Below are positions 3,951-62,925 of a DNA stretch of 64,000 nt, piece by piece. The stretch spans positions 26,745 through 90,744 of the forward strand of contig CAVJGK010000001.1 of assembly GCA_963648895.1 (NCBI GenBank). The letters run 5' to 3'. Source of the stretch: Lachnospiraceae bacterium (lineage in GTDB: Bacteria > Bacillota_I > Bacilli_A > RFN20 > CAG-449). The stretch's first letter is position 1; every line of letters starts with the position of its first letter. The translations under genes and the position numbers were made by a program. The notes below the pieces were generated by a model. The model was not told the origin of the DNA and searched no databases. It saw nothing but the letters and a program-made list of their open reading frames with translations.

Positions 3951-4447
3951 TATGCGTCTTTCTTTTTAAGAAGTTTGAATGTATTACTCATAATTGTTTC
4001 ATAGTCTGTAGATTCAAATAAGCATGCGGGACACATTTTAGTATTACCTTCGAAGTCTTTTTCTTCAACTTCTACTAGACCTGTTAATTTATATCCATTT
4101 TTATCAAATGCAAGCGCTAGATTTTGAAAACCTGAGAAACCAGAAGAAATTGTAAATTCATTAATATTTTGTTCTTTTAGTATTTCAGCGTATGCTTCAG
4201 CTTGATTATCAAATATTGCTTCCTTAAAATCTAAATATTTTGCTTCATTTCTGCGTTGCTGCTCGTAAGCTCTGTAGATAGCGCAAGCAGCAATCTTCTT
4301 TTCTTCAGTATTGTAACTATTTATTAAATCATTATACACTTTATTTACTTGTGCTTTTGCAGTTGTTGTATCTATTTTATTGGCATCAAAATCCTTTTGT
4401 GTTTGTGTTACGATTTCATAAATGTTTTCAAAAATATTCATCCTCAA
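3950..4447 (-). CDS. hypothetical protein
   Basis: 165 aa ORF. Promoter-like TAGTTTAT...TATAAT motif upstream at about 4455-4500. Confidence 0.45.
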   Translation of the reverse strand: MRMNIFENIYEIVTQTQKDFDANKIDTTTAKAQVNKVYNDLINSYNTEEKKIAACAIYRAYEQQRRNEAKYLDFKEAIFDNQAEAYAEILKEQNINEFTISSGFSGFQNLALAFDKNGYKLTGLVEVEEKDFEGNTKMCPACLFESTDYETIMSNTFKLLKKKDA

Positions 4448-4499
4448 TTTCCTCTTTTCTTTACGTATTTATTATACCATGAATGAATAAAAAATAAAC

Positions 4500-5266
4500 T
4501 AAAAAACTCCGTAAATTTAAAAAACCCCCGGACCCGAAGGACACCGGAGGATAAACTGGAAAAATTTATCCAATTTAATAAGAAAAGATAGGGTTTAAAT
4601 TTTTGAGCGTACCTTAAAAACCCTTATAAGAAAGTATATTTGAGTCTTCACCCTGCATACTGTTATATCGGAACTATATTCTGCCATACCGAGAACATAT
4701 GTGAGCTATAAGTAGCGATCTTATAACTATATGCCCCTTTCGAGCGGTAAGAGGATTGATTACCCCTAGCTTTCATCAATCATTCACTTTCTAAAATCTT
4801 GCAATTCTTTAACCAAAGAATAAACAGGTTTTACCCTATTAGATTTTTCCAAATTATGACTACTCGAACCGTAAACTCGTCTTATACCTAGATTGCTCTA
4901 GTTCAATTGGAAATCTCGTTATTCGCATTTCCTAGGTTTGTCAAGTTGCGAAGCTTAAACCTAACTAGGATTCGGCAATGCTGTTAACACTGCTTTCTAT
5001 TGCCGAGACGACAAGAATCGTGCCATTAATTTCGATATTGTATGTACCACCAACACCACAAAATTCTCATTTAAGAACCTGAATAACTATATCACTATAG
5101 AAACCCATTAACTATTATTAGCTATCGTTAATAAATTGCCAATTGTGTAACCAAAGTATTGTTGATGTCTCAGCTGTATAACCTTACATCTTCACTGAGT
5201 TAAAATACTTTCTTATAAGAATTTTCAAAGAACTTTAAATAATATACAGGAAAATTTGTTTTCCTT
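4500..5266 (-). ncRNA. candidate structured stable RNA(s) downstream of the tRNA cluster
   Basis: About 770 nt with no ORF in any frame, even allowing TGA read-through. Locally GC-rich, with several perfect stems. CCGG..(12 nt)..CCGG near 4528-4547. AGGGTTT..(20 nt)..AAACCCT near 4580-4625. TCGGCAAT..(19 nt)..ATTGCCGA near 4971-5005. Co-oriented with, and immediately 3' of, the tRNA genes. Confidence 0.25.
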
Positions 5267-5356
5267 TGGCGTCCGTGGCAGGGTTTGAACCTGCGCACCG
5301 ATTGCTCGATCTAACAGTTTAGCAAACTGTCCTCTTAACCACTTGAGTACACGGAC
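5267..5356 (-). tRNA. tRNA-Ser (anticodon GCT)
   Basis: Cloverleaf folded by hand. Acceptor GTCCGTG/CACGGAC, anticodon loop TTGCTAA, long variable arm, T loop TTCAAAC, encoded GCCA 3' end. Confidence 0.8.
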
Positions 5357-5362
5357 ATTTTT

Positions 5363-5439
5363 TGGTAGGCGTAGCAGGAATTGAACCTACGATCTTACCC
5401 TTATCAGGGGCATATTCTAACCAACTGAACTATACGCCT
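5363..5439 (-). tRNA. tRNA-Ile (anticodon GAT)
   Basis: Acceptor AGGCGTA/TACGCCT, anticodon stem TGCCC/GGGTA with loop CTGATAA, T loop TTCAATT, ACCA 3' end. Confidence 0.8.
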
Positions 5440-5443
5440 ATAA

Positions 5444-5469
5444 TTTGACAGTTACATGTAACTGTCAAA
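5444..5469. repeat. perfect 26-nt palindrome TTTGACAGTTACATGTAACTGTCAAA
   Basis: Self-complementary over its whole length. Sits between tRNA-Ile and tRNA-Pro. Confidence 0.9.
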
Positions 5470-5498
5470 TAACGATTGATTCATTTCAATTGCTTCCA

Positions 5499-5576
5499 TG
5501 GTCTGGATAATAGGATTTGAACCTATAACCTCCTGATCCCAGGCCAGGCGCTCTACCAAGTTGAGCTATATCCAGA
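5499..5576 (-). tRNA. tRNA-Pro (anticodon TGG, less likely GGG)
   Basis: Acceptor CTGGATA/TATCCAG plus discriminator A and CCA. D arm GCTC..GAGC, anticodon arm CCTGG-CCTGGGA-TCAGG, T loop TTCAAAT. Confidence 0.7.
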
Positions 5577-5787
5577 TAATTGAAGGGGTTTTCAGTCTCC
5601 CTTCTCGACCTCTCGGATATGTTTTCAGTCTCTATCCCGACCAGCGTACGCTGCTGTTACGTCAGCGAATTGCTCATTTGTCTAATTGGCATTTTTTGAG
5701 CCTGACCTTATTTGAGTTGCATATCAGGTAGCAACATGCATTTGTGCGCGTAACTTTGCTAATGCGAACATGTCCTTACGCAGGACT

Positions 5788-5861
5788 GGTGCTGATTGAG
5801 AGAATCGAACTCCCACTAGATGCTTACAAGACAACTGTTCTACCATTAAACTAAATCAGTA
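5788..5861 (-). tRNA. tRNA-Thr (anticodon TGT), slightly irregular
   Basis: Acceptor ACTGATT/AATCAGC with an A1:C72 mismatch. D arm GTTT-AATGGTA-GAAC. Anticodon arm GTTGT-CTTGTAA-GCATC with one U:U mismatch. T arm GGGAG-TTCGATT-CTCTC, then ACCA. Confidence 0.5.
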
Positions 5862-5905
5862 TATGGCAGGGACTAAATAATATACAGAAAATAAATTTAT
5901 AATTT

Positions 5906-6799
5906 TTAGACCCTTCCCTTAGTAAACCCCGCAGGGCATGTATTAGCTAAAATATTAACTTTACCATCAGTATACCAATGCTTTCCATACGCGGGATTAG
6001 CACTTCCAGCATTCCAAGAAGTCATTTTTGGTTTTTCGTGTAGTTTGTGGTATTCTTCCGTTGACATAGTCAAGCGCTCATAGAAATCACGAGGGGATTT
6101 TACATTATAAGTTGTTTTGCAATATAATCACATATCTTCTAAATCGTAACCATATAATAACTTATATGAAAAGTCTTTAGGAACAGAATTAGCTTTTGCT
6201 TCAACTAAGTTTTTATCTGCGCGTTCTGATTTTAATTCTACAATAGTATTAGTATCAGGAAGATAAAAATCAGGAATATACACATGTGGACTATTTTGCC
6301 ACACATACTCAAAAGTAAATTTACAGCGCTCTATTTTAATGTCATGGTCTAAGCAATACACCAAAAAGATCAATTCATAACTAGATTGAAATGGCAAATC
6401 TTTGTAATAACCGTGATAACTGGAACTGCAATTTGTACTTCCACAAGCGATAGCAATTTTTTGTTTAGTTTCTAGCGAGTGTGGGCGTGAGCTCGAACAA
6501 GAACGAGAGCAATAAATACCGGTTCCAATTTTTTTATAAAATTGTTTACCGCAAGTCTTGCAAAAATGCTGCTCGCTATCCCACTGCGCTTGTTTTGCAT
6601 CTCGTACTGCTTTACACTTCGCTTTATAAGCTGCAGTTGCTAATGCCAGGTTCTGTTTAGCACATCTCATTCGTGCTTCCCATTTTTCATCCCCAAGATT
6701 AACTCGGCAATTAGATTTGTGGGCATTGAAACTCTGAGCATTTGTATAAGTTTTTCCGCATTTACATGTGTAAATGCCTGCGTATTTAGATGTCTTCAT
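5906..6799 (-). CDS. homing-endonuclease-like protein inside the tRNA cluster, read through one in-frame TGA
   Basis: Starts MKTSKYAGIYTCKCGK at 6799, 10 nt after the suppressor tRNA. Zn-finger-like CKCGK..HKSNC, a NUMOD-like SLETKQKIAIA element, and a PD-(D/E)XK-like IPDFYLPDTNTIVELK. TGA at 6128-6130 is followed in frame by 74 more codons ending in the conserved homing-endonuclease C-terminal motif SWNAGS..HWYTDGKVNILANTCPAGFTKGR. The track N-terminus MCSVMVAH... is a translation of the tRNA and is spurious. Confidence 0.55.
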
Positions 6800-6809
6800 A
6801 GTTAAAATC

Positions 6810-6903
6810 TGGCAAGTGTGATAGGACTCGAACCTACTCCCGCGGTTGTGGGCGCCGCTACCCGGTTTTGAAGACCGGTGTGCTACCATTACACTACACA
6901 CTT
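6810..6903 (-). tRNA. suppressor tRNA with anticodon UCA (reads UGA), class II with long variable arm
   Basis: Hand-folded. Acceptor AAGTGTG/CACACTT with G73 and encoded CCA. D arm GTGT-AATGGTA-GCAC. Anticodon stem CCGGT/ACCGG with loop CUUCAAA (U33, anticodon UCA, A37). Roughly 24-nt variable arm with GCGG/CCGC stem. T arm GTAGG-TTCGAGT-CCTAT. Confidence 0.8.
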
Positions 6904-7018
6904 ATTAATGCTGGATTCACTATTTATGATACCAGCTAGACCCAAACAGTTCCTAGCTCTCTCCACAGAACATGACTCCGATCCCGAGACGTCACTGATA
7001 ACCGAGTGCGTACGCTTT

Positions 7019-7093
7019 TGGTTGCGGATGGAAGATTCGAACTTCCGACCTCCAGGTTATGAGCCTAGCGAACTACCTCTGTTCTAATCCGCG
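7019..7093 (-). tRNA. tRNA-Met (anticodon CAT), initiator-like
   Basis: C1:A72 mismatch (CGCGGAT...ATCCGCA-ACCA). Anticodon loop CTCATAA, T loop TTCGAAT. Shows the bacterial initiator features. Confidence 0.8.
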
Positions 7094-20308: not shown

Positions 20309-20893
20309 TTAAATTCTACCGGGGACAAATCCCTCTGGACAAATCTCTTTGCGCACATTTATAGTTCCATTATTAAACCATTTTAATTTGTGCATTGTTT
20401 CTTTTCTTTTATCTTTCGTCACCTGCGTTTGTTTTTTGCCTAAATTAGCAGCACGTAGTTTTTCTTTGGTTTCTTCTGAAACAGATTTTCCTTTATTTCA
20501 TGGAACTTTTCCTTTATGTGCTTCGCTCATTTTCTGTCTTGCTTCTGTAGATCGCTTTTGACCTTTTAAGCTATTATTCATCTTTTCCTGTGTCTCAGCA
20601 GACCTTTTATACTGGACATTTCTTACTTTTTCTTTAAAGTCATTAGTTCTGTAAACAGATGGAAACTTAATATAATCAGGATGTTCAATATTAAGGCTTA
20701 CGCACTCTAACGAGTTATATTCTATCAAATTTCTCTGCCATTTATCTGGAGAACATCGCCATAATAGGTAATTGCATCTAAGGTGCTCTTCTAAAGGTAA
20801 TTCATCCACAAGCTTAAAATAAGATTCTAGCACATCAGGTAATTCCATTTTAGTGATAAGTTGTTTATAACATGCGTTATACTCAAGTTTCAT
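20309..20893 (-). CDS. NUMOD-repeat homing-endonuclease-like protein with one in-frame TGA
   Basis: The track ORF ends with TGA at 20498-20500. In-frame continuation NKGKSVSEETKEKLRAANLGKKQ (another NUMOD3-like repeat) ends in the conserved C-terminal motif WFNNGTINVRKEICPEGFVPGRI and TAA. Confidence 0.5.
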
Positions 20894-22048
20894 TTATACT
20901 TTCTCCCATACATATATTTTATTACCTGCGCCATAAATCTTGCTCACTGCTTCTTCAGCATATTCTGAAACAATATCTTTATTAGGTAGCATATACCATA
21001 CATTAGGTTCTGTATAACCTACAAGGCGCATTCCTAATACTTCATATTCATGCCCAGCAAACTTATTAAAATCGCAGTAAGCAGTTATTTTATTCGGGCG
21101 ATGCTGTTGTATAAAGTAATTAAACAACTTAGACATTCCACCAGTGACCAAAATGCTATTCTTAGTAGTGTTTTGTGTCAGTTCCCAATCATCATTAACT
21201 TTGCCAAAAGACATTGTCTGAACTAATTCATTATTATAAAATAACCCATAAGTAATCAGCACGCCTGGAATTTCTCGTATTGCGCATTCACTTGCATCTA
21301 TACGCGTTTCCACTTTATTTAAAACAGCACGCAATAACGACTTTATAGTTTCCCTAGTAGCATCATCATTTCATTCCCATTCATAAATATGAATTAAATG
21401 TATTCCTTTATTAGCACATTTTATACTTTTATTTAAGTGATAATACTTATCTGTTCCTGCAATATCGCTATGATAGTACTGCCCATTAAACTCTATTGCA
21501 ACTTGGGCACCAGGAATATAAATATCTAATTCTTGTGGCGGAATAACATTTCTTACATGTGTTAAAACTTCCCCATCATAAATACTTTGTACATAGTTAA
21601 ATATTTCTTGTTCCGGATGTGAACCAGTATGAGTAATTCCGTTGTTAAGATCATCAAAAGAATCCTTTAGTCTTTCGTAATCGTCCTTAGAAATATAAGC
21701 AATATTGCCATTTTTATATGTTTTGATATTCCGATTATTAAGTGTAGCAGCTAATCTACATCGCTTTATCTTATCATTATAATCTACAATATCTTTTAGT
21801 ACTACTATATCAGGATTACTGTGTAATTCATTTATTATTGCCTGCTTATTCTTCTCGGTTGTTATTTTATTAAATAGCGTAGCACAGTTGTGTGTATCAT
21901 AAAATTGTTTTACTTTAGGTAAAGAATCTATAGGAAATTCTCCATTAGCGTTAGGTGCTATTTCCAAGTATTCAAAAATATTCTTTACTGTTCCTTTTGA
22001 TATTCTGAGAGCATCAGAAAACCACCTAACCTTTTTATAAACCATCAT
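20894..22048 (-). CDS. DUF559/Vsr-like (PD-(D/E)XK) endonuclease-domain protein, two track ORFs fused through an in-frame TGA
   Basis: ELDIYIPGAQVAIEFNGQYYH motif. The track ORF ends at TGA 21371-21373. The next 12 codons NDDATRETIKSL run straight into ORF 20894-21334 in the same frame. Confidence 0.5.
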
Positions 22049-22052
22049 AATT

Positions 22053-22084
22053 ATTATAAATTAATTATCGGGTATTGTAAACTA
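22053..22084 (-). promoter_or_regulatory. early promoter TAGTTTACA-N17-TATAAT
   Basis: -35 TTTACA at 22081-22076, 17-nt spacer, -10 TATAAT at 22058-22053. Sits immediately after a terminator hairpin. Confidence 0.5.
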
Positions 22085-47450: not shown

Positions 47451-47804
47451 TTATTCGTCTCCAGTCATTTCATTCATATATCGAATGTTCATTGCAATTT
47501 TATTCACCGCAGCAACACCTTGAAGATCTTTACTTTGAATTTCATTTGTGCTGAATGTAAAATTTAGTGGAATATATTCCTCACTATGTCCTAACAAATA
47601 ATCTTCAGTACATCCAAACAAACTGCATAACTTATCAATCATAGTTACACTTAAAACTCTTGTGCCATTCTCAATTTTTGTTATCAAACTCTGATCAACA
47701 CCCATGTATTTTGCCATTTGTTCTTGTGTTAAATTGTTGTTTTTTCTCAATTCCTTTAACCTTGAGCTAACCTCCATTTGCTCTATTCGTTCCTCCTTTT
47801 GCAT
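47451..47804 (-). CDS. XRE-family helix-turn-helix transcriptional regulator
   Basis: LTQEQMAKYMGVDQSLITKIENG is a Cro/C1-type HTH. The gene appears leaderless because the -10 ends 5 nt before the ATG. Confidence 0.6.
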   Translation of the reverse strand: MQKEERIEQMEVSSRLKELRKNNNLTQEQMAKYMGVDQSLITKIENGTRVLSVTMIDKLCSLFGCTEDYLLGHSEEYIPLNFTFSTNEIQSKDLQGVAAVNKIAMNIRYMNEMTGDE

Positions 47805-47809
47805 CTATT

Positions 47810-47838
47810 ATTATAAACCAAACATATTAAAAAGTAAA
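47810..47838 (-). promoter_or_regulatory. promoter TTTACT-N17-TATAAT producing a leaderless mRNA for the XRE regulator
   Basis: -35 at 47838-47833, 17-nt spacer, -10 at 47815-47810. The start codon lies at 47804. Confidence 0.45.
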
Positions 47839-48036
47839 TTACTTTTTTAAATCATTACTAACATTTAGAATATCTTCTATAATGTCTTGTTCAAACTTTT
47901 CTCCTTTATCTGCATAAAGGTGTCTATCTGTTTCGCCATCAGTTATTATAATGTGTTCAGGCGAAAAATATTTCAAATACAGCATATTTAGTTTCTCCTT
48001 TATATTTATAATAGCGTAAAATAAAAGGAAAGTAAA

Positions 48037-49020
48037 CTACTTTCCTAAATAATATTTTGGTCCATAAATTAAACTATCAACACCTATTTCATACTCTTTA
48101 TTACATATTAATTTAATACTGTCAGGATTAAACATTGAATAAGTATCTTGAGCTAACTTTAGTGCTTCCTCTTCAGTTTTACCCTTTTTAATTGCCTTCT
48201 CATAAGTTTCATGAATCTTAGATTGGTTCTCATCTTCATACCAACCATCACATACAATATAAGGGTCGACTGACCATGGAGTAAAAGAACATTTTTCATT
48301 TGCTGCTTGTACCATTAATTCGCAAAGACGCTCTGCAACTCTTTCTTGATTCTGTAGAGGTGCTTCACAGAAAACTTCATCATGGATGGTAACCAGCAAT
48401 CTAGCACCTAACTGTTTTAATTCTTCGTCATTATTAATTAAAATCATTGCAGATTTTGTCATTGTAGCAGCAGAAGATTGAATTCTAGCATTTAATGTTT
48501 GTCTTAATGCTCTACTAATAAACGCACTATTATTACGTACTTTTAATCCATCTGTCTCTGCACGCTCCTGAACACTTTGCCTTGCTATTTTAGTTTTAGC
48601 TTTTTCGAGTTCTTTTGTATATTTTTTAATCTTTACTTCTAACTGCTTATCTTGATGCTCCCGTGCGCCAATAAAAGGATTAAAATAATCTTTCTTAACT
48701 TTTTCTTCTATTGTATATAGGGGTAATTGCGCATCAGGTAAATGTCTTCTTCTACCATAGATATTAGTGACGTATCCAAGTTTCTTTGCCATTTCCTGTG
48801 AATCTTTTGTAAATTTATCAACTGCTTTAAATCCATCATAATACGCATCAATAATAGAATTTGCTTCAGTTACAGGTAATTGCATTCTTTTTGCAAGTGT
48901 TGGTGCAGACATTCCATAGTTAACACCGAGGAATACCTGTTTCGCTTTTGATCTTCGCTCCTTACCTTCTTGTGATTGTATTACTGTAACATTTGAATGT
49001 CGTTTTACTTTTATTTGCAT
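48037..49020 (-). CDS. DNA polymerase I (family A), C-terminal segment (motifs B and C)
   Basis: RSKAKQVFLGVNYGMS (motif B, R..K...FG..YG) and LLVTIHDEVFCEAP (motif C). Confidence 0.7.
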   Translation of the reverse strand: MQIKVKRHSNVTVIQSQEGKERRSKAKQVFLGVNYGMSAPTLAKRMQLPVTEANSIIDAYYDGFKAVDKFTKDSQEMAKKLGYVTNIYGRRRHLPDAQLPLYTIEEKVKKDYFNPFIGAREHQDKQLEVKIKKYTKELEKAKTKIARQSVQERAETDGLKVRNNSAFISRALRQTLNARIQSSAATMTKSAMILINNDEELKQLGARLLVTIHDEVFCEAPLQNQERVAERLCELMVQAANEKCSFTPWSVDPYIVCDGWYEDENQSKIHETYEKAIKKGKTEEEALKLAQDTYSMFNPDSIKLICNKEYEIGVDSLIYGPKYYLGK

Positions 49021-49039
49021 ACATATCCTACTTTCTTCT

Positions 49040-50089
49040 TCATATACAATTATACACTGTTTTATCCGTATTTAACACATTAATTATCTTTTTGCCCACA
49101 TTTCTATAATGAATATTATCTAAACCTAAACTTAAGATATATTTAGCAGCTTGATTAACAGAAACAAATTCCATCTGGTCGTTATTTTCATCTATCATAA
49201 TAATATGATATCCATGAATGCCTGCTACAACGCTTTTAATTTTCTTCATACTATCTTCAGAATACTCTTTTGATTTCTTGGTACTTTCTTCAATCTGTCA
49301 AGTATATCCATTGAGTAGTAATTCGTTTTTAGATGCTCTCTTTAAAGTTTCAGGACTTGTTTTTATACACTGACACACGCTTTTAATTGAATTAAATTCT
49401 AGTACCTCTGTTTCGTTGTATGCTTTAACCTTAAGACTATTCTTTGATGCAATACTATTTTTAGTTTCTATTGAATGAGACTTACCATAAAATCCATTCT
49501 TTTTGCCTATTCTCTGCTTACTTATTTCAGACAGTTTAGCTCTAGTTTCTTTAGAAGGACAATAACCTTTTTTACCCTCACTAATATGTTGACACCAAGA
49601 CTTATAAGAATCTGATTCCTTATCAATATCCTTATAATAAGCTAATAATGACTGTTTTTGTTTATTTCTACATTCTTCTGTGGAAGTAACCTGCAATATC
49701 ATTTCTCTATATTCTAAATAATATTGTTCAATGTTATCTAATAAGCTAATAAATTCTTCATATTCAGGTAAGTTATTGAGCTGTTTATTTCTTAAAATGT
49801 ATTGAATACTAGCATAGTTCTTGCCTTTATATTGGTCGGTACTGCACCTACAAAGAAAATAATGAGCTAAAATATGGTCTTTAATGCTAAGATTTACTAA
49901 ATTATTAGCTGAATTATCGACTGCTAAGTTATTAAGTTTATAATAAAATCTAGGTACAATATGATGCTTTTGAGTTTTATTAACACAATGCTCTGTATAT
50001 CTATTATTTTCTATTAGATTTGCATATTTGTCGAGTCATTCATTATCTATTACTAAACCAATAGTGATTAATTTTTCTTTTGTCTGCAT
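49040..50089 (-). CDS. HNH homing endonuclease with NUMOD repeats and C-terminal HTH, containing two in-frame TGA codons
   Basis: MQTKEKLITIGLVIDNE[TGA]LDKYANLIENNRYTEHCVNKTQKHHIVPRFYY...NLVNLSIKDHILAH (HNH). NUMOD-like SKETRAKLSEISKQRIGKKNGFYGKSHSIETKNSIASKNS. The TGA at 49298-49300 links in frame to QIEESTKKSKEYSEDSMKKIKS...FVSVNQAAKYILSLG (IENR-type HTH). Confidence 0.55.
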
Positions 50090-50490
50090 TTCTCTATTTC
50101 AAATTCTACATTTGCTGCTTTGCCTGGATGCACCAATGCGATAAAATAAGGTTCATCCTCAACTAATATCTCATCATTTACTGATAAATCCTTTGCATAT
50201 TTCCAACCATTAGGAGTTTCTAATTCATCATCAAGATTTACTGTAAAAGCATGGTCTATGATATCAACAGCAGCATCACAAGGTTCTATCGACTCTTTAA
50301 CCGGTTTAAATTCTAGATTATCCTCATACTCATTGTGATAACATTTTGATGCAATCTTTGCGTACAAGTCTTGTTGTTGCTGATATGCTTCCTGCATATC
50401 TTTATCTTGCGCAAAAGCGCACAAAGAGCGGGGTTCCTGACCACTAAAATCCCCACCAATAATCGCATATCGTTTTCTTACTCTAATCAT
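50068..50490 (-). CDS. DNA polymerase I (family A), middle segment (motif A)
   Basis: IIGGDFSGQEPRSLCAFAQDKD matches the polA motif A DYSQIELR...HLS.D. The C-terminal 60 aa are Hint-like (see findings). Confidence 0.6.
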   Translation of the reverse strand: MIRVRKRYAIIGGDFSGQEPRSLCAFAQDKDMQEAYQQQQDLYAKIASKCYHNEYEDNLEFKPVKESIEPCDAAVDIIDHAFTVNLDDELETPNGWKYAKDLSVNDEILVEDEPYFIALVHPGKAANVEFEIEKCRQKKN

Positions 50491-51118
50491 CTACTTTCTC
50501 CCATTTAATATAATCTATTATAACATCTTTATATGTTGGTTGCGAACCCTTTAAAAATTGTTTTATCTTTCTTTGATACATTGCTTCATTGAATGGATAA
50601 CCTGGTTTTAATGGACGTGTATTATACCACCAAATAGCGCCTTCTCTGATAGAATCGAAATAATATTCTTTTCCTTCGTAATAGCATTTAACTTTTATAG
50701 ACCTTGTAGCATATTGTTGATTTTGACCGCATTCACCATTTTCTCTAATCTTGGTACCATAATAGTTTAATCCTTGAGCTTTATTATCTTCTAAACGTTT
50801 TTCTCTAGAATCTTTTATCTTTTGTTTATGCTCTTCGCTAAAACCATTTTCTTTTCTATAATCCGATAAACTTTGCGAAATTTTATCTCGTACCTCTTGC
50901 GAAGCAACTTTTGCATCATGTTTTGCTTTCCACACAGGGTCCCACATAGGATTAACTGGATTATCACTCAAATATCCATAAGCAACTTTGAGCTTAAAAT
51001 TATCTGGGTATTTTTCACAAAGTAATCTATGCGCTTCTACGTGTTCTTCATGAGTCAACCTAATAATATTTTTATCTTTTTGCCGAGATTTACCTTCACC
51101 ACCCATACATTTCGGCAC
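50483..51118 (-). CDS. HNH homing endonuclease within polA intervening sequence 1
   Basis: IIRLTHEEHVEAHRL (HNH) and a NUMOD-like SEEHKQKIKDSREKR. Confidence 0.5.
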   Translation of the reverse strand: MPKCMGGEGKSRQKDKNIIRLTHEEHVEAHRLLCEKYPDNFKLKVAYGYLSDNPVNPMWDPVWKAKHDAKVASQEVRDKISQSLSDYRKENGFSEEHKQKIKDSREKRLEDNKAQGLNYYGTKIRENGECGQNQQYATRSIKVKCYYEGKEYYFDSIREGAIWWYNTRPLKPGYPFNEAMYQRKIKQFLKGSQPTYKDVIIDYIKWEKVDD

Positions 51119-51209
51119 TATATGGTGTCCTTCCCAGTTACATTTTAAATTAGCTCATTGTCCCCGTTCTCTTTTAATACTATTTATGTATTCATCATAA
51201 TTCATTAAG

Positions 51210-52916
51210 TTAAACCTCCAACAAATAATAATTATCTTGCTTTATTATATTTTTAATAGTCTCAACATTATCTTCTGATTCCAGCTTATCACCAACTTTT
51301 AATTGATTTACAAATACCCAACCATTATCAGTTAGTACTTCTTCTGTATCCTCAATCTTATAAGTAGAATCTACGCTTTCTACTTGACGCTCATCTATAG
51401 TTGGTTCAAAAATCATTCTAACTGTTTTATCATGAGATGGAATATTTTGTAAGTTAGGATTTGATGACGCAAATCTTCCTGTAACAGTACCAATAGGGTC
51501 AAATCTACCATGTACTCTGTGATTTTTATCTACGCCCGCAGGAATAGCATCAATGAATGTAGTAATAAGAATGTCTACCGCTCTTTTTTCTTTAATTAAT
51601 TCACAAACTTTAATATGCTCTTCTTCAGCTAATTGGTCTAAGATTTCTTTACCTGTTCCGCGTGGTTTATCCTTATTAACACTTGGTGCTTTAAGAATGT
51701 CATATAAAAATATTGCTAATTGAGTATCTGAATTTAAATCAATAGGATCAGATAATTTTTCTGCGGGAGTTTTACTTGCCCACTTATACCTCTTCTTTAA
51801 TTTTTGGTCATAATAAGGGTATTGCTTTTCAATCTCTGCTTCTGATAATTTAGTCTTCTTTGGAGCATACACGGGTTGTCTAGTGTTTGCTTCAGGAGTT
51901 AACTTCCAATCATCAATTAATTTTTGATTTGCTTTTACTTCTTCATCAATCTCTCTTTGTTTCTCATCAGACTTTGCATGATAAATAGTAGACATCTTAT
52001 CTGCATACTCTGTGTTAACATAAACACCTGCTGTTTCCATATCGACTACAACATCTAAAATTGGGATTTCTACTTTATATAATAAATCTAATAGTTCTTT
52101 ATTTTCAGGTCTAGTTAAAATCTCAAATTGATATTCTTGTAATTTAAAAGTATCATAACTATCTGTAGCAGCATATAGTGCAAATAGTTCAGGGTCAAAC
52201 ATAGCATAAGGAAAACCTGCAAATAAATGCTCTATGTCGTATCTTTCTTGCGTTGGATCAATATGTAATCTGTATTGTGCTTTTAAACCTTTAAGCTCAT
52301 TTTCATTTATTAGATGTGCACCTACTTGAGTATCCCAATCAACATGTACTCTTGTTCCAGTTGTTTGCTGAAGAACTTCAATATCAAATATTGCGTTATG
52401 AAATATAGTATAAGTATTACCTAAACGTTTAAGTTGTTCTGCTATTTGTGATTCTGTAAGTTGTCCTTCTACTAAATCACCCATAATAACTTGCTCTTTA
52501 CCTTTTTCATCATATTCAACTGTAAATTTTCTATGATTAACAGGAACATATGCTGCTTTCATGCCTGGAGTATATAAACAAAGACCCATCAATTTACAAT
52601 CTTTAAAAACTTCTAATGTATTATTAGTTTCGGTATCTATTGCAATCTTTCCGTTTTCTAACGCTTTATCAATATACTTTTTATAATCTTCATAAGTTCT
52701 AATTACAATAGTATTTTCGGCATATCTTCCTAAAATCTGATACACTTGTTCCCTAATTAATTGCATCTTATCATAGATAGAAATATAAGAAGATTTTAGT
52801 TTTTGTTGAACTGTTAAATTTTCTAACTTTTTAGGTGCTCTCGCTTTTTTAAGAATAGACTGAGTATCTTCTTCTTTTAAAGTAAATTCTTCACCCCACA
52901 GAGATAATTGTTCCAT
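51210..52916 (-). CDS. DNA polymerase I (family A), N-terminal segment (3'-5' exonuclease plus N-terminal polymerase domain)
   Basis: 568 aa. Conserved SSNPNLQNIPSHDKTVRMIF block just before the expected position of motif A. Ends with a TAA. Confidence 0.7.
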   Translation of the reverse strand: MEQLSLWGEEFTLKEEDTQSILKKARAPKKLENLTVQQKLKSSYISIYDKMQLIREQVYQILGRYAENTIVIRTYEDYKKYIDKALENGKIAIDTETNNTLEVFKDCKLMGLCLYTPGMKAAYVPVNHRKFTVEYDEKGKEQVIMGDLVEGQLTESQIAEQLKRLGNTYTIFHNAIFDIEVLQQTTGTRVHVDWDTQVGAHLINENELKGLKAQYRLHIDPTQERYDIEHLFAGFPYAMFDPELFALYAATDSYDTFKLQEYQFEILTRPENKELLDLLYKVEIPILDVVVDMETAGVYVNTEYADKMSTIYHAKSDEKQREIDEEVKANQKLIDDWKLTPEANTRQPVYAPKKTKLSEAEIEKQYPYYDQKLKKRYKWASKTPAEKLSDPIDLNSDTQLAIFLYDILKAPSVNKDKPRGTGKEILDQLAEEEHIKVCELIKEKRAVDILITTFIDAIPAGVDKNHRVHGRFDPIGTVTGRFASSNPNLQNIPSHDKTVRMIFEPTIDERQVESVDSTYKIEDTEEVLTDNGWVFVNQLKVGDKLESEDNVETIKNIIKQDNYYLLEV

Positions 52917-52997
52917 AATTAAGCTCCTTTTCTTTACTTTACTATTGTAACATATAAAATAAAAAAAAGAAACTAAAAAAGAGACATTTAAGTCTCT

Positions 52998-53834
52998 TTA
53001 ATAAGTAACTCTTCTAACTGGATTTCCTGCGTTAGGAACCGCAGCTGAATAATTTTCAGCAGCGAATACTGGTGAAGTTTGCTCTTCATATGCAGGAATT
53101 GGTGTTCTAGGCACTTCTTGGTAAACTTCTCCATATTGATTTGCAGTTGCTGTAGAATTAACAGTACTCGTATTTGTAGTAGTATTTGCCAACGGTGCTT
53201 TACCATTAGCGATTAATAATTGATTTGCTAAGTCAGCAACTTCATTATAAGGTTTATCTAAAATAAATTTCATTGGATTGAAATTTTCAAATAGCTTAAA
53301 ATCAGCTGGATATGCTTGTTTATTAAAAATAGTAGCATTCTTTATTAGTAAATTATATCTAGTATCTTGTGTTGTTGAACCAATTCTTTCTAAAGTAAAC
53401 ACTTGGTCTGCTAGATTTCCGTACTCTGTGTAGCAACTTTTTAATGTGTTTAAGAATCCTGATGGTCTTTCAAATACTACTGAATGAGTTTCTTTTAATT
53501 GTCCATTTTCATCAACAACATATTTTAAAGCAGGAATAAATACTGTTTGCTTATATCGCTCGCCTGCTGCACACAATGGGCATGCCGCAATAGGATCATA
53601 AAAACCTCTTAAACAGTTAACTTTTCTAAATTTTCCACCAATATTAATTCCATGAACTGTATATCTAGGTAATTCATCTGGCGAATTAAAAGCAAATCTA
53701 ATTAATACTTTTTCCCCTGGATTTAATTTTAGAAATGAAACTGAATTTGTGTGATCATACTTAGTTACTGCACCAGTTGGTTGTGCTTGTCGTTCTGCTT
53801 GCATTTTTAAAAATTCTTCGTGTGTAAATTGCAT
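52998..53834 (-). CDS. single-stranded DNA-binding protein candidate (gp32-like zinc-containing)
   Basis: H...C..CPLC zinc-site-like spacing (HGIN...CLRGF...CPLCAAGE). Low-complexity T/N/S-rich tail and acidic C-terminus. Sits between the primase and the polymerase. Confidence 0.4.
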   Translation of the reverse strand: MQFTHEEFLKMQAERQAQPTGAVTKYDHTNSVSFLKLNPGEKVLIRFAFNSPDELPRYTVHGINIGGKFRKVNCLRGFYDPIAACPLCAAGERYKQTVFIPALKYVVDENGQLKETHSVVFERPSGFLNTLKSCYTEYGNLADQVFTLERIGSTTQDTRYNLLIKNATIFNKQAYPADFKLFENFNPMKFILDKPYNEVADLANQLLIANGKAPLANTTTNTSTVNSTATANQYGEVYQEVPRTPIPAYEEQTSPVFAAENYSAAVPNAGNPVRRVTY

Positions 53835-60697: not shown

Positions 60698-62914
60698 TTA
60701 AATTTCATGCTTCCAACCAGATGATGTTTTTACCCACACATCAGTAACACGCTTCCAACCCGCATCCACTTTAATATATGCTGATTGAATGTCTACCCAT
60801 GCAGGGACATCTGTAGAAGATTTTTGTATTTTTATTTTCTTACCTGTTTTTACCCAAACACCATAATACTTAGGAATATTATCTTTGTTATCCCAAGGCA
60901 AATAGCGCTCTTTATCAGTAATAGAAACAGTATAAGAAGGAATTAAATTATTAGTAACACTTGCTTCAATATCATCTATTGACTCGTATACACCATAAGT
61001 ATTCCAGAAATCATTTGGTAATTGGGAAGTCCAACCTACGAATGAATGATCTTCCCATACTGGCGCATTCATTTTCCAAACAGAACTACTGGTAATCATT
61101 GAAGCGTCATACCACTGTCTGTCTGGATTTTTCCAAACACCATTATAATAAATAAAATCTACATAGTGCGGAACTTCTGACCAAGAAGCAACTAATTCAT
61201 ACTTAGTTTGTCCAGTAGCATAGAATGCATCATCTAAAGTTGCGCCTGGCGCATATGATAATCCATTGATTGTCCATGCTTTAAATAATCTACTATTATC
61301 ATTATAAGTAGGAGTTATAGTAGGCAAAGTTGCTGCAGTGCCATAAGTCTTACTAATAGAATCTATCTTAGTTGGTGTTATTGCACTTGATGTTGCATTT
61401 AAATTAAATGAAACTGTGTATGTAACAGGTGCCCATATCGCAATTAAAGTAGAATCTGCTTTAAACTTAGTCGTTGATGTAACCTTTATTCCATTATATT
61501 GCCATTCTTTAAATGTATAACCTGTTCTTGTAGGTGTTGGTAAGGTTCCTATCGCAGTTTCTGTTATTGAGCTTCCACTTTGTGCCCATTGAGCAATAAA
61601 TGAACCTGGTCTAACTACCCCGCTTCCACCAATTTGAACACCAGTATCTCCCCCAGAAGTGGTGTACCAATTACTTTTTGCAGTATAAGACGTTTTAGAA
61701 TTACAAGAAATAATTGAGTCCGAACAAGCAGAACCTCCATCACTATTATAATGAATAGTAACATTTGTTTTACCTGAAACATCATAAGTTAATTTATATA
61801 AACTTGGTCAAGAGGTGGAATTATTTTCTAGAACATTACTAATTTCCGCCTTAGTTGGTCTTGTTTGATCTGTGCCAGCACTAAATGTCATAATTGGATA
61901 CCATTTAGCATATAAGGTCATATTAGAATCAGTAGAAACAGAAGTAACTTTTGTTCCGTCCTCTTTATACCAACCAGCAAATTTATAACCATCTCTTGTT
62001 GGTGTTGGAAAACCTGAAAAAGATGCTTTAGATGTTACATCAGTAGTAGAACCGCCATTAGACCAGTTTGCCCAAACTTCTTGATTTGCAATACTAACTG
62101 TATCTCCTGCATTCTTACCATTATTCCAACCAGTAAAATTATATACAGTTGTAGTTCTAGTACTCGCTGAACCGGTTAAAGAACTTACCGAACTTCCACC
62201 ATTTGAATTAAAATATAAATAAACAGTTTTAGTTCCAGTAGAGGTCTCATTAATTGAAGAACTTGAGACACCTGGGCAAGTTACAGTTTTTCCGGTCCAT
62301 CCTGTGTAAGTTGATGTTCCAGAAACAGAACTTCTAGACGTTTTAAACGTCATTGTCATTTTATTACTGTCTGTAAAAGGTGATATAAGAGAAACTGTTG
62401 GGGTGCCGATTGTCATTGTGCCACTAGATGATGTGACTCCTTTATACATAGTTACATTGCCTGTCCAACTTTCAGTTGTTTTAGCACCTAGGGTAAATGT
62501 GTAAGAGTAGTAGGCATCACCTAGACCTCATTCTTGTTTTAAATCATTATAGCTACGAATACCAATATACCCGGATGTATAGGCATTACCCCCCTCAGAG
62601 GTTCCTCTTCTAAGTGTTATCGACGGTATTACCATTCGCAAGTCATACGCAAACGAGGCGCTACTATTCTTAGCAAGACATATATAGACGGTTACTGTAG
62701 TATTACCCGATCCATCACTTTGTGGGGAACACCTAACAGCTAATTGTGGTTGAATATAGCTGGGATTTGACACTTTTCCTGTTCCACCATACTCTGAAAA
62801 GGAAATGGTACAGTTATTATAAGCGAGGAACTGATCTCCATTAGTGCATGTTCATGATGTACTGCCACCACCATAGACTGATGAGTAATTGCCATTAGGA
62901 TAATAAACTGCCAT
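60698..62914 (-). CDS. receptor-binding/tail-fibre protein with Flg_new-type (Y.F.GW) repeats, containing three in-frame TGA codons
   Basis: AGGAG RBS 8 nt upstream of ATG at 62914. TGA at 62852-62854, 62528-62530 and 61808-61810 join track ORFs 62528-62773, 61808-62449 and 60698-61327 into one 738-codon frame. Repeats GFPTPTRDGYKFAGWYKEDGTKVTS, GTLPTPTRTGYTFKEWQYNGIKVTS and YNFTGWNNGKNAGDTVS. Confidence 0.55.
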
Positions 62915-62925
62915 AGGTTATTCTC

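Follow-up and report, generated by a model that had tools for sequence, protein, structure and literature searches.

A phage family-A DNA polymerase gene in three pieces, with two HNH endonuclease genes in its gaps and Hint-like tails on its upstream pieces

The DNA analysed here, a stretch of 64,000 nucleotides (nt) from assembly GCA_963648895.1 (contig CAVJGK010000001.1, positions 26,745 to 90,744; hereafter the window), contains a phage gene for a family-A DNA polymerase (PolA) that is distributed over three minus-strand open reading frames (ORFs) with two HNH endonuclease genes between them. Piece 1 (51210..52916; 568 amino acids, aa) matched the Pfam domain DNA_pol_A_exo1 (E 4.5e-8) and positions 7-152 of the DNA_pol_A profile (E 7.7e-23), piece 2 (50068..50490; 140 aa) matched positions 151-200, and piece 3 (48037..49020; 327 aa) positions 200-362 (E 4.5e-35). 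These contiguous profile positions identify the three ORFs as consecutive parts of one family-A polymerase. Piece 1 consists of the 3'-5' exonuclease and the N-terminal polymerase sequence as far as '...SSNPNLQNIPSHDKTVRMIF', followed by a tail. Piece 2 comprises a short leader, motif A 'YAIIGGDFSGQEPR', sequence up to '...NLEF' and a second tail, and piece 3 a leader, motif B 'RRSKAKQVFLGVNYGMS', motif C 'LLVTIHDEV' and the C-terminus. In the translations, the exonuclease motifs and polymerase motifs A, B and C were all intact across the three pieces, and the exonuclease domain and motifs A (DxSxxE), B (RRxxKxxxFGxxYG) and C (HDE) were colinear with DNA_pol_A, as in family A. The polymerase pieces contain no TGA. 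The central claim of the original prediction, a PolA gene in three segments that contains two HNH insertions and whose upstream segments end in Hint-like tails, holds in full, and its ORFs (52916-51210, 50490-50068 and 49020-48037) exist with consecutive Pfam matches. Its statement that each segment lies in a different frame was mistaken: pieces 2 and 3 share a frame, and piece 1 alone differs.

Each upstream piece ends in an in-frame C-terminal extension (CTE). CTE1 (51213..51407, minus strand) is a 65-aa Hint-like, all-beta tail reading 'EPTIDERQVES...YYLLEV', and CTE2 (50071..50301, minus strand), a second copy reading 'VKESIEPCDAAVDIIDHAFTVNLDDELETPNGWKYAKDLSVNDEILVEDEPYFIALV...', forms the C-terminal part of piece 2. 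The downstream pieces start with an N-terminal extension (NTE), which is 'MIRVRKR' in piece 2 (NTE1, 50490-50470, minus strand) and 'MQIKVKRHSN' in piece 3 (NTE2, 49020-48991, minus strand). Break site 1 corresponds to the loop just before motif A and break site 2 to the loop before motif B; the uninterrupted sequences that would be the targets of the endonucleases read '...RMIFKPSDGYAIIGGDFS...' and '...NLEFQPQPDGTVIQSQEGK...'. Polymerase similarity in piece 1 ended at '...VRMIF', around residue 505 of 568, in both tblastn and Pfam, and intact relatives have no tails; the tails do lie beyond the point where PolA conservation ends, as had been proposed.

Analysis of the junctions revealed no non-coding space, the successive genes being separated by 4 nt, an overlap, a second overlap and 7 nt. 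Piece 1 stops at a TAA (51212-51210) and a TAG (50493-50491) stands directly 5' of the ATG of piece 2, both as originally described; piece 2 also stops at a TAA (50070-50068). Every start at the locus is preceded by a Shine-Dalgarno (SD)-like sequence: GGAGG at 51219-51215 for the first endonuclease gene, GGGAG at 50502-50498, 7 nt ahead of the piece 2 ATG, and AGGA at 49029-49026, 5 nt ahead of the piece 3 ATG.

The gene in the first gap, HNH1 (50483..51205, minus strand), encodes an HNH homing endonuclease of the MobA type, 240 aa in length with the TGA at 51157-51155 read as sense. HNH2 (49028..50089, minus strand), in the second gap, encodes an HNH/NUMOD3 homing endonuclease of 353 aa with the TGAs at 50038, 49300 and 49042 read as sense. 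Both matched the phage protein family phrog_655, annotated 'homing endonuclease', HNH1 with E 7e-21 over residues 1-215 and HNH2 with E 2.4e-12 over residues 17-286, in each case across the TGA positions; HNH2 in addition matched the NUMOD3 domain (E 5.8e-7). The MobA proteins of phages HY03 and fHyAci03 are also in phrog_655, and BLASTP aligned HNH1 with MobA from residue 1 at 33-37% identity. Both endonuclease ORFs lie in a frame other than that of the host pieces, which they abut or overlap: the HNH1 ATG is located 4 nt past the piece 1 stop and its TAG overlaps the start of piece 2, and the HNH2 ATG overlaps the end of piece 2 and its TAG (49030-49028) lies 7 nt before piece 3. The presence of HNH ORFs between the segments had been correctly predicted, but the limits proposed for them, 50483-51118 and 49040-50089, do not delimit clean ORFs under code 11. 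HNH1 begins at the ATG at 51205 and contains the in-frame TGA at 51157, and HNH2 runs from 50089 to 49028 with three in-frame TGAs. An alternative GTG start at 51118 would cost HNH1 its catalytic His, the motif 'EGHHIVP...N...EH..AH' being complete only with TGA as sense; in HNH2, the TGA at 49042 would terminate the protein four codons ahead of the TAG.

Under the standard code both HNH ORFs would be broken by stops, and all four of these stops are TGA (one in HNH1 and three in HNH2). The 83 long minus-strand ORFs end in TAA (59), TAG (19) or TGA (5), and all five apparent TGA stops are followed by 62-369 further codons in the same frame. A tRNA gene with anticodon UCA is encoded at 6810..6903 on the minus strand (ARAGORN; Rfam tRNA, 59.4 bits). 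Homologous endonuclease genes in three related genomes (L002, L005 and L007) carry more in-frame TGAs, most of which are aligned with a Trp of the copy in the window, and the 'RGQ-TGA' position near the endonuclease N-terminus is kept in all three. Because of these stop counts, the tRNA(UCA) and the alignment with Trp in relatives, TGA is read here as a sense codon of this phage that terminates none of the long ORFs of the window, and both HNH genes are considered intact; the encoded residue is probably Trp. The tRNA(UCA) is a candidate decoder of the in-frame TGAs needed by both genes. It has a long variable arm (about 22 nt), G73 and an encoded CCA, and this class-II shape is unlike that of a tRNA-Trp, which makes the assignment of TGA to Trp, suggested by most of the alignments, a tentative one. 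In-frame TGAs are also present (at 62854, 62530 and 61810) in a large Ser/Thr/Gly-rich minus-strand ORF at 60698-62917, tail-fibre-like by composition, and the recoding is therefore not limited to endonuclease genes. Two more minus-strand ORFs, at 20309-20893 and 20894-22060, are continuous only with TGA as sense. The first has a NUMOD3-like motif 'GKVP-TGA-NKGK', typical of homing endonucleases, in which Trp is expected at the TGA, and the second contains 'YEWE-TGA-NDD'; both are probably further free-standing endonuclease-type genes. The phage tRNA cluster (5267-7093) is directly adjoined by a full-length ROOL RNA at 4622-5223 on the minus strand (RF03087, 256 bits, E 2.5e-57).

Homologues of the polymerase and of its tails were then compared, in a search covering 5.8 billion proteins and, for the tail profile, 1.84 billion representative proteins at E ≤ 0.001. 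Piece 1 had hundreds of homologues. Among them were intact polymerases some 820-875 aa long with the reading '...RMIFKPSDGYAIVGSDYS...' and no tail (P0009, P0017, P0018 and others), and numerous proteins of roughly 520-580 aa whose C-terminus is the same tail of about 60 aa. A 955-aa protein (P0006) has a tail continuing in frame into '...KPIRARTQYAIIGGDFS', and in P0043 and P0047 the tail is found at the second site only. The tail profile matched 706 representative clusters, some of which are Hint proteins and not polymerases. All 60 single-domain matches whose sequence was read are PolA N-terminal fragments ending in the tail. The CTE is carried by the N-terminal polymerase piece of more than 140 distinct relatives, and it ends its protein in 142 of 145 distinct cases, the other three being in-frame insertions. 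The tail-bearing polymerases are only 40-75% identical to that of the window. The search with the piece 2 protein returned only six proteins, and a look-up of protein clusters yielded neither names nor accessions for the proteins of the window.

In the tail alignment a beta-strand-like pattern is conserved, and only Trp30, Gly39 and Asp40 are near-invariant. A profile built from site-1 tails only (106 relatives) scored CTE2 at 36.9 bits (E 6e-8 at Z = 1e6), so that CTE1 and CTE2 are homologous, and the resemblance between the two tails noticed from the sequence is borne out. Site-2 tails homologous to CTE2 were also found in P0122, P0043 and P0047. The same CTE and NTE types recur at site 2 in the window, L005, L007 and P0043, with either endonuclease type alongside; the CTE/NTE module travels with the gene break and not with the site. 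Between the closest genome pairs, the proportions of synonymous (pS) and nonsynonymous (pN) differences in the tail were about 0.6 and 0.3, respectively (dN/dS, the ratio of nonsynonymous to synonymous rates, 0.24-0.34), and in the polymerase body about 0.6 and 0.14 (dN/dS about 0.11). The excess of pS over pN indicates that selection on the tail acts on the protein rather than on the RNA.

An HNH2 orthologue lies at the same site in L005, an HNH1-type endonuclease is found at site 2 in L007, and in L006 the intron-like insert at motif B contains an endonuclease of the HNH2 type. By this distribution, endonuclease type and site are interchangeable, and the HNH2 type is found in an intron-like setting as well as in a cassette with tail and leader. 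The site-1 gap of L002 (7714-8130) contains two tandem endonuclease ORFs, HNH_3-type and then HNH1-type, an arrangement that suggests one endonuclease invading beside another.

The downstream pieces begin with a basic leader of 7-10 aa with the consensus 'SIK-x-RT-x-Y'. At site 1 it reads MIRVRKR-Y in the window, MKSIKARTSY in L002, MTIKTRTRY in L005, VSKSIKTRTKY in L006 and MSKSIKTRTRY in L010, and at site 2 MQIKVKRHSN in the window, MQIRVKRKSK in L005 and MSSIKVTRVSR in L007. Many relatives have no endonuclease and yet are still split, with the downstream piece starting with the conserved leader. In L006 the site-1 gap consists of a TAA, 21 nt including GAGG, and a GTG, and the gaps in the endonuclease-less splits of L012 and L010 are 39 nt and 161 nt, respectively. 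The conserved arrangement of stop, SD, start and leader would be sensible only for separate translation. The split state is old and maintained, judging by the share of CTEs that end their protein, the divergence of the tail-bearing polymerases and the dN/dS values; the three-piece layout itself recurs in the independent assembly L005. These downstream leaders were not part of the original prediction, nor were the TGA recoding of the HNH genes and the T4 MobA and Aeh1 MobE precedents considered below.

The tails are significantly related to the Hint/intein fold, namely to its N-terminal half. Pfam gave only scattered weak Hint matches for single tails, and it took deeper profiles to reach significance. 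The proteins matched by the tail profile in more than one domain, with E values from 1e-13 to 1e-7, were all tandem Hint, PT-HINT or intein proteins. In searches of PDB, deeper tail profiles had the gp41-1 intein as the best sequence match (E 1.7e-4 to 4.7e-4), the CTE aligning with its residues 9-56, and also matched a bacterial intein-like (BIL) domain (E 2.7e-3). An AlphaFold2 (AF2) model of CTE1 built with 106 homologues consisted of seven strands and had a predicted local distance difference test score (pLDDT) of 87.5. The top 18 Foldseek matches of this model in PDB were almost all inteins or BIL domains (probability up to 0.99, TMq 0.53-0.56), and its matches among the viral models of BFVD were Hint proteins and classic intein hosts. 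The earlier description of the tails as Hint-like is backed by these profile searches and by the model. Of the origins suggested for them, intein remnants and a recurring module accompanying the endonuclease insertion both fit these data; translated intron sequence does not.

The arrangement has close parallels in T4-like phages. A MobA-type element splitting a topoisomerase gene into genes 39 and 60 was reportedly described by Bonocora et al. in 2011, and the insertion of MobE into the nrdA gene of Aeromonas phage Aeh1 by Friedrich et al. in 2007. According to Manning & Atkins, MobA elements split the large subunit of T4-like topoisomerase II (Topo2L) and add a conserved in-frame CTE and NTE, the CTE being out of frame with the endonuclease gene and overlapping it; some lineages have lost the endonuclease and kept the split, and others have been re-fused, a course termed 'hit and run' (bioRxiv 10.1101/2022.08.31.505936). 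Its authors considered tails perhaps a general strategy, found MobA only in Topo2L and called the CTE 'unique' (bioRxiv 10.1101/2022.08.31.505936). Where MobE splits nrdA of Aeh1, the enzyme needs the tails to be active and to assemble its holoenzyme, and neither RNA nor protein is spliced (Crona et al. 2011, PMC3045599).

The locus in the window shares with MobA an endonuclease of the same phrog_655 (HNH1 and HNH2), an endonuclease ORF that is out of frame and abuts or overlaps the host pieces, a conserved in-frame CTE upstream and an NTE with its own start downstream, both absent from uninterrupted alleles, and the existence of lineages that are still split without endonuclease and of re-fused lineages keeping CTE and NTE. 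In hhalign, the PolA CTEs were matched with gp39 tails from six clades of T4-like phages at probabilities of 90-93%; T4 topoisomerase structures were absent among the top 50 Foldseek hits listed for the CTE model. On the other hand, the target here is PolA and not the Toprim domain of Topo2L, and two elements occupy one gene. There is neither a 50-nt translational bypass cassette nor a 'homR' replacement, pieces 2 and 3 being read continuously into polymerase. The NTE has 7-10 aa against about 45, the CTE is Hint-like and has about 60 aa against about 44, and TGA is a sense codon in the endonuclease genes. We regard the element, from these comparisons, as a relative of MobA and not MobA itself. 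The likeness to MobE in nrdA lies in an essential replication-related enzyme split by a free-standing HNH endonuclease, with tails; the host gene is a different one, and the function of the tails is experimentally established for NrdA and only predicted for this polymerase.

The explanation that we favour, and consider likely, is that the polymerase is made as three polypeptides that assemble non-covalently by means of Hint-derived tails, RNA introns and protein splicing both being unlikely. PolA is on this view a 'gene in pieces' inside which two free-standing T4 MobA-type HNH genes (phrog_655) sit, each embedded in a small cassette. Such a cassette ends the upstream piece with an in-frame CTE of about 60 aa and a stop codon, and gives the downstream piece a ribosome-binding site, a start codon and a basic NTE of 7-10 aa. 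There would be no splicing of RNA or protein; each of the three polypeptides (568, 140 and 327 aa) would be the product of its own translation, and together they would form an active exonuclease-polymerase by non-covalent reassembly. The CTE would be a degenerate N-terminal half of a Hint domain without catalytic residues, perhaps descended from an intein, and together with the NTE it would dock neighbouring pieces. The endonucleases, for which homing activity is presumed, would be translated only because the phage reads TGA as sense. What the data establish is the anatomy, the endonuclease family, the conservation, fold class and Hint relatedness of the CTE, the survival of the split where the endonuclease is gone, and the re-fused forms; the assembly, the docking by CTE and NTE, homing and the descent of the CTE from an intein are inferred.

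Among the alternatives, we consider it improbable that the module of about 75 aa is an ordinary in-frame accessory domain of a polymerase lineage, as it could appear in P0006, whose loop was later entered by the endonucleases; the tails would in that case belong to the polymerase and not to the cargo of a mobile cassette. In-frame forms without an endonuclease do exist, since P0006, P0265 and P0230 are re-fused and carry CTE and NTE in frame, and many lineages keep the CTE without any endonuclease. However, in-frame insertions account for only the three cases among 145 distinct CTEs mentioned above, the rest ending a protein, and the same CTE/NTE pair recurs elsewhere in the polymerase, at an unrelated second site that also coincides exactly with a gene break. 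In P0006 the near-invariant Trp is gone and, in an AF2 model with a pLDDT of 86.7, the insert falls below 50, as expected of a relic. Moreover, both the introduction of tails and the persistence of fused relics have been documented for elements of the MobA type (bioRxiv 10.1101/2022.08.31.505936).

Group I introns with HNH ORFs, in which the tails would be intron read-through and the mRNA would be spliced to a single polymerase message, are in our view very improbable. Phage polymerase genes are classic intron hosts, and group I introns interrupt those of SPO1 and SP82 (I-HmuI/II), Twort and T7-like phages (I-TslI); HNH ORFs inside a family-A polymerase gene are common to these systems and the window. 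In addition, relatives of the window's polymerase appear to carry such introns at motif B, where inserts interrupt '...LLG | ITYGMS...' in L006 and L013. The insert of L013 (4963-5180) has about 220 nt, no ORF and a weak match to RF00028 (16.8 bits, E 0.099), and in that of L006 (6911-8335), which gave no Rfam match, an HNH2-type ORF is flanked by structured non-coding sequence. For the window, the Rfam search gave no RF00028 match at E ≤ 10 in 47800-53100 and no intron at the gathering score, a method that is insensitive in this family, having given nothing for the L006 insert and only 16.8 bits for L013. The ORFs abut or overlap and leave no room for a catalytic core or non-coding flanks, and the RNA encoding the tails did not exceed shuffled sequence in stability (z -0.61 and +0.32). 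The putative intron would also have to encode a conserved protein domain that folds with confidence and has pS above pN, and the downstream SD and start keep a fixed position even in relatives with gaps of 21-39 nt. Of the two explanations put forward in the original prediction, the group I intron is disfavoured by the abutting ORFs and the tails as a conserved protein domain; invasion by free-standing endonucleases is favoured by the lack of room for an intron, the downstream pieces' own ribosome-binding sites and starts, found also in relatives that lost the endonuclease, and the purifying selection on the tails at the protein level.

Still less probable is that the tails are N-fragments of atypical split inteins and that the pieces are joined by protein trans-splicing. 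Phage replication enzymes broken in two, with an endonuclease in the gap and functional split inteins, constitute the 'fractured genes' (2009, PMC2677866). The window resembles them in the order of N-part, endonuclease and C-part and in an upstream piece ending in Hint-type sequence, and the best PDB match of the CTE, gp41-1, is a split intein of that group (PMC2677866). Nevertheless, the tails lack every splicing residue and are not functional inteins. No invariant Cys or Ser was found at the junction, in the place of the intein position-1 nucleophile, in tail alignments A1, A3 and A5. Block B TxxH is absent, the downstream leader reading 'RT-x-Y', and a match of the NTE to block B made by eye was not recovered by HMMER. 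The C-terminal intein half is likewise absent: the downstream pieces have only 7-10 extra residues, without blocks F/G or His-Asn, and the +1 residue where the polymerase resumes is Tyr or Val instead of Cys, Ser or Thr. The Hint part is the N-terminal half only. The endonucleases here are HNH of the MobA type, and one of the endonuclease families of fractured genes is Vsr-related (PMC2677866). Genuine inteins are detected by Pfam elsewhere in the same protein family, at another site and beside the tail, with the canonical ends '...TGRFS|C...HN|C/T..PNLQ'.

Least probable of all is a decaying or mis-assembled gene with frameshifts or stops and no functional polymerase, for although the polymerase is interrupted and the HNH ORFs contain in-frame stops under the standard code, the three-piece layout of L005 comes from an independent assembly, the site-1 split is present in hundreds of clusters, the polymerase body is under constraint, and all the in-frame stops are TGA, which aligns with Trp in homologues and terminates none of the window's long ORFs.

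Two further candidates were rejected. A programmed frameshift fusing the CTE to the HNH protein, or the HNH protein to the next piece, has no slippery context and no conserved frame relationships, and a T4-like translational hop does not agree with pieces that are read continuously.

Several points weigh against non-covalent assembly through Hint-derived tails. The evidence for the assembly and for the role of the tails consists of anatomy and precedent. The negative Rfam result on introns is weak evidence, likely introns in relatives having been missed or barely detected. The Foldseek matches had E values of 0.085 or worse, individually not significant, with high root-mean-square deviations, and the hidden Markov model alignment to gp41-1 stops before the NTE. 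The low pLDDT of the CTE-NTE insert of P0006 leaves strand pairing between NTE and CTE as an idea. The link with the T4 CTE is suggestive only, with 17.8 bits in HMMER and pairwise comparisons in hhalign, and the T4 CTE profile by itself found no Hint protein in PDB. Finally, no near-identical uninterrupted allele was found by megablast of the locus against phage records, which gave no match, by a pattern-based locus search in IMG/VR, which yielded no relatives, or by the protein search.

Other insertions and breaks were observed in the relatives. A different break, 'SSxPNL | QNIPSH', is recurrent, with proteins that end there and pieces of about 80 aa that start 'MQNIPSH...'; the group of homologues with an intein or this break comprises P0086-P0100, P0130, P0169, P0185, P0209, P0233, P0238 and P0250, and also P0069, P0074, P0083, P0101 and P0127. 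From these observations the PolA gene of this family emerges as a hotspot for several classes of mobile element. In L013 (4640-5000), the piece after the tail reads 'MSKSITTRTCYNICGSDFS' and then, in another frame, 'AQEPRSTASL...', a change that could stem from a frameshift in sequencing, from a pseudogene or from a programmed shift. Further mobile elements were seen in the replication modules of relatives: in L013 an IS605 OrfB/TnpB (Cas12f-like) gene beside the primase (249-1394), in L012 an intein (Hom_end_hint) of the DnaB helicase (503-2593), and in L002 a GIY-YIG ORF that follows the primase (4047-5033).

The host gene, the two cassettes per gene, the lack of a bypass cassette, the TGA-dependent endonucleases and the identifiable half-Hint fold of the tail are new in this system. 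The use of tails instead of splicing, as in MobA and MobE, would be extended by these results from two T4-like cases to a large and diverse set of phage polymerases, with the same type of cassette at two sites of one gene. The tails are given an identifiable fold and a plausible half-Hint origin, which links inteins, fractured genes and free-standing endonucleases. The split also explains the 'truncated' PolA proteins of about 530-570 aa, some of them longer with an intein, and the tiny PolA fragments that are called in phage metagenomes, and the locus is a clean example of endonuclease genes readable only under TGA-sense decoding. The CTE/NTE pair could serve as a compact natural heterodimerisation tag. 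As a tentative proposal, which we hold to be rather doubtful, CTE and NTE may be parts of a dead half-Hint that re-associate across the break, a 'velcro' descended from a split intein and no longer splicing. If this were true, the MobA tails on T4 gp39/gp60 would be the same module, and Mob-type cassettes would descend from HNH inteins and connect inteins with free-standing homing endonucleases in evolution. They would represent a widespread third way, besides RNA splicing and protein splicing, for selfish elements to reside inside essential genes.

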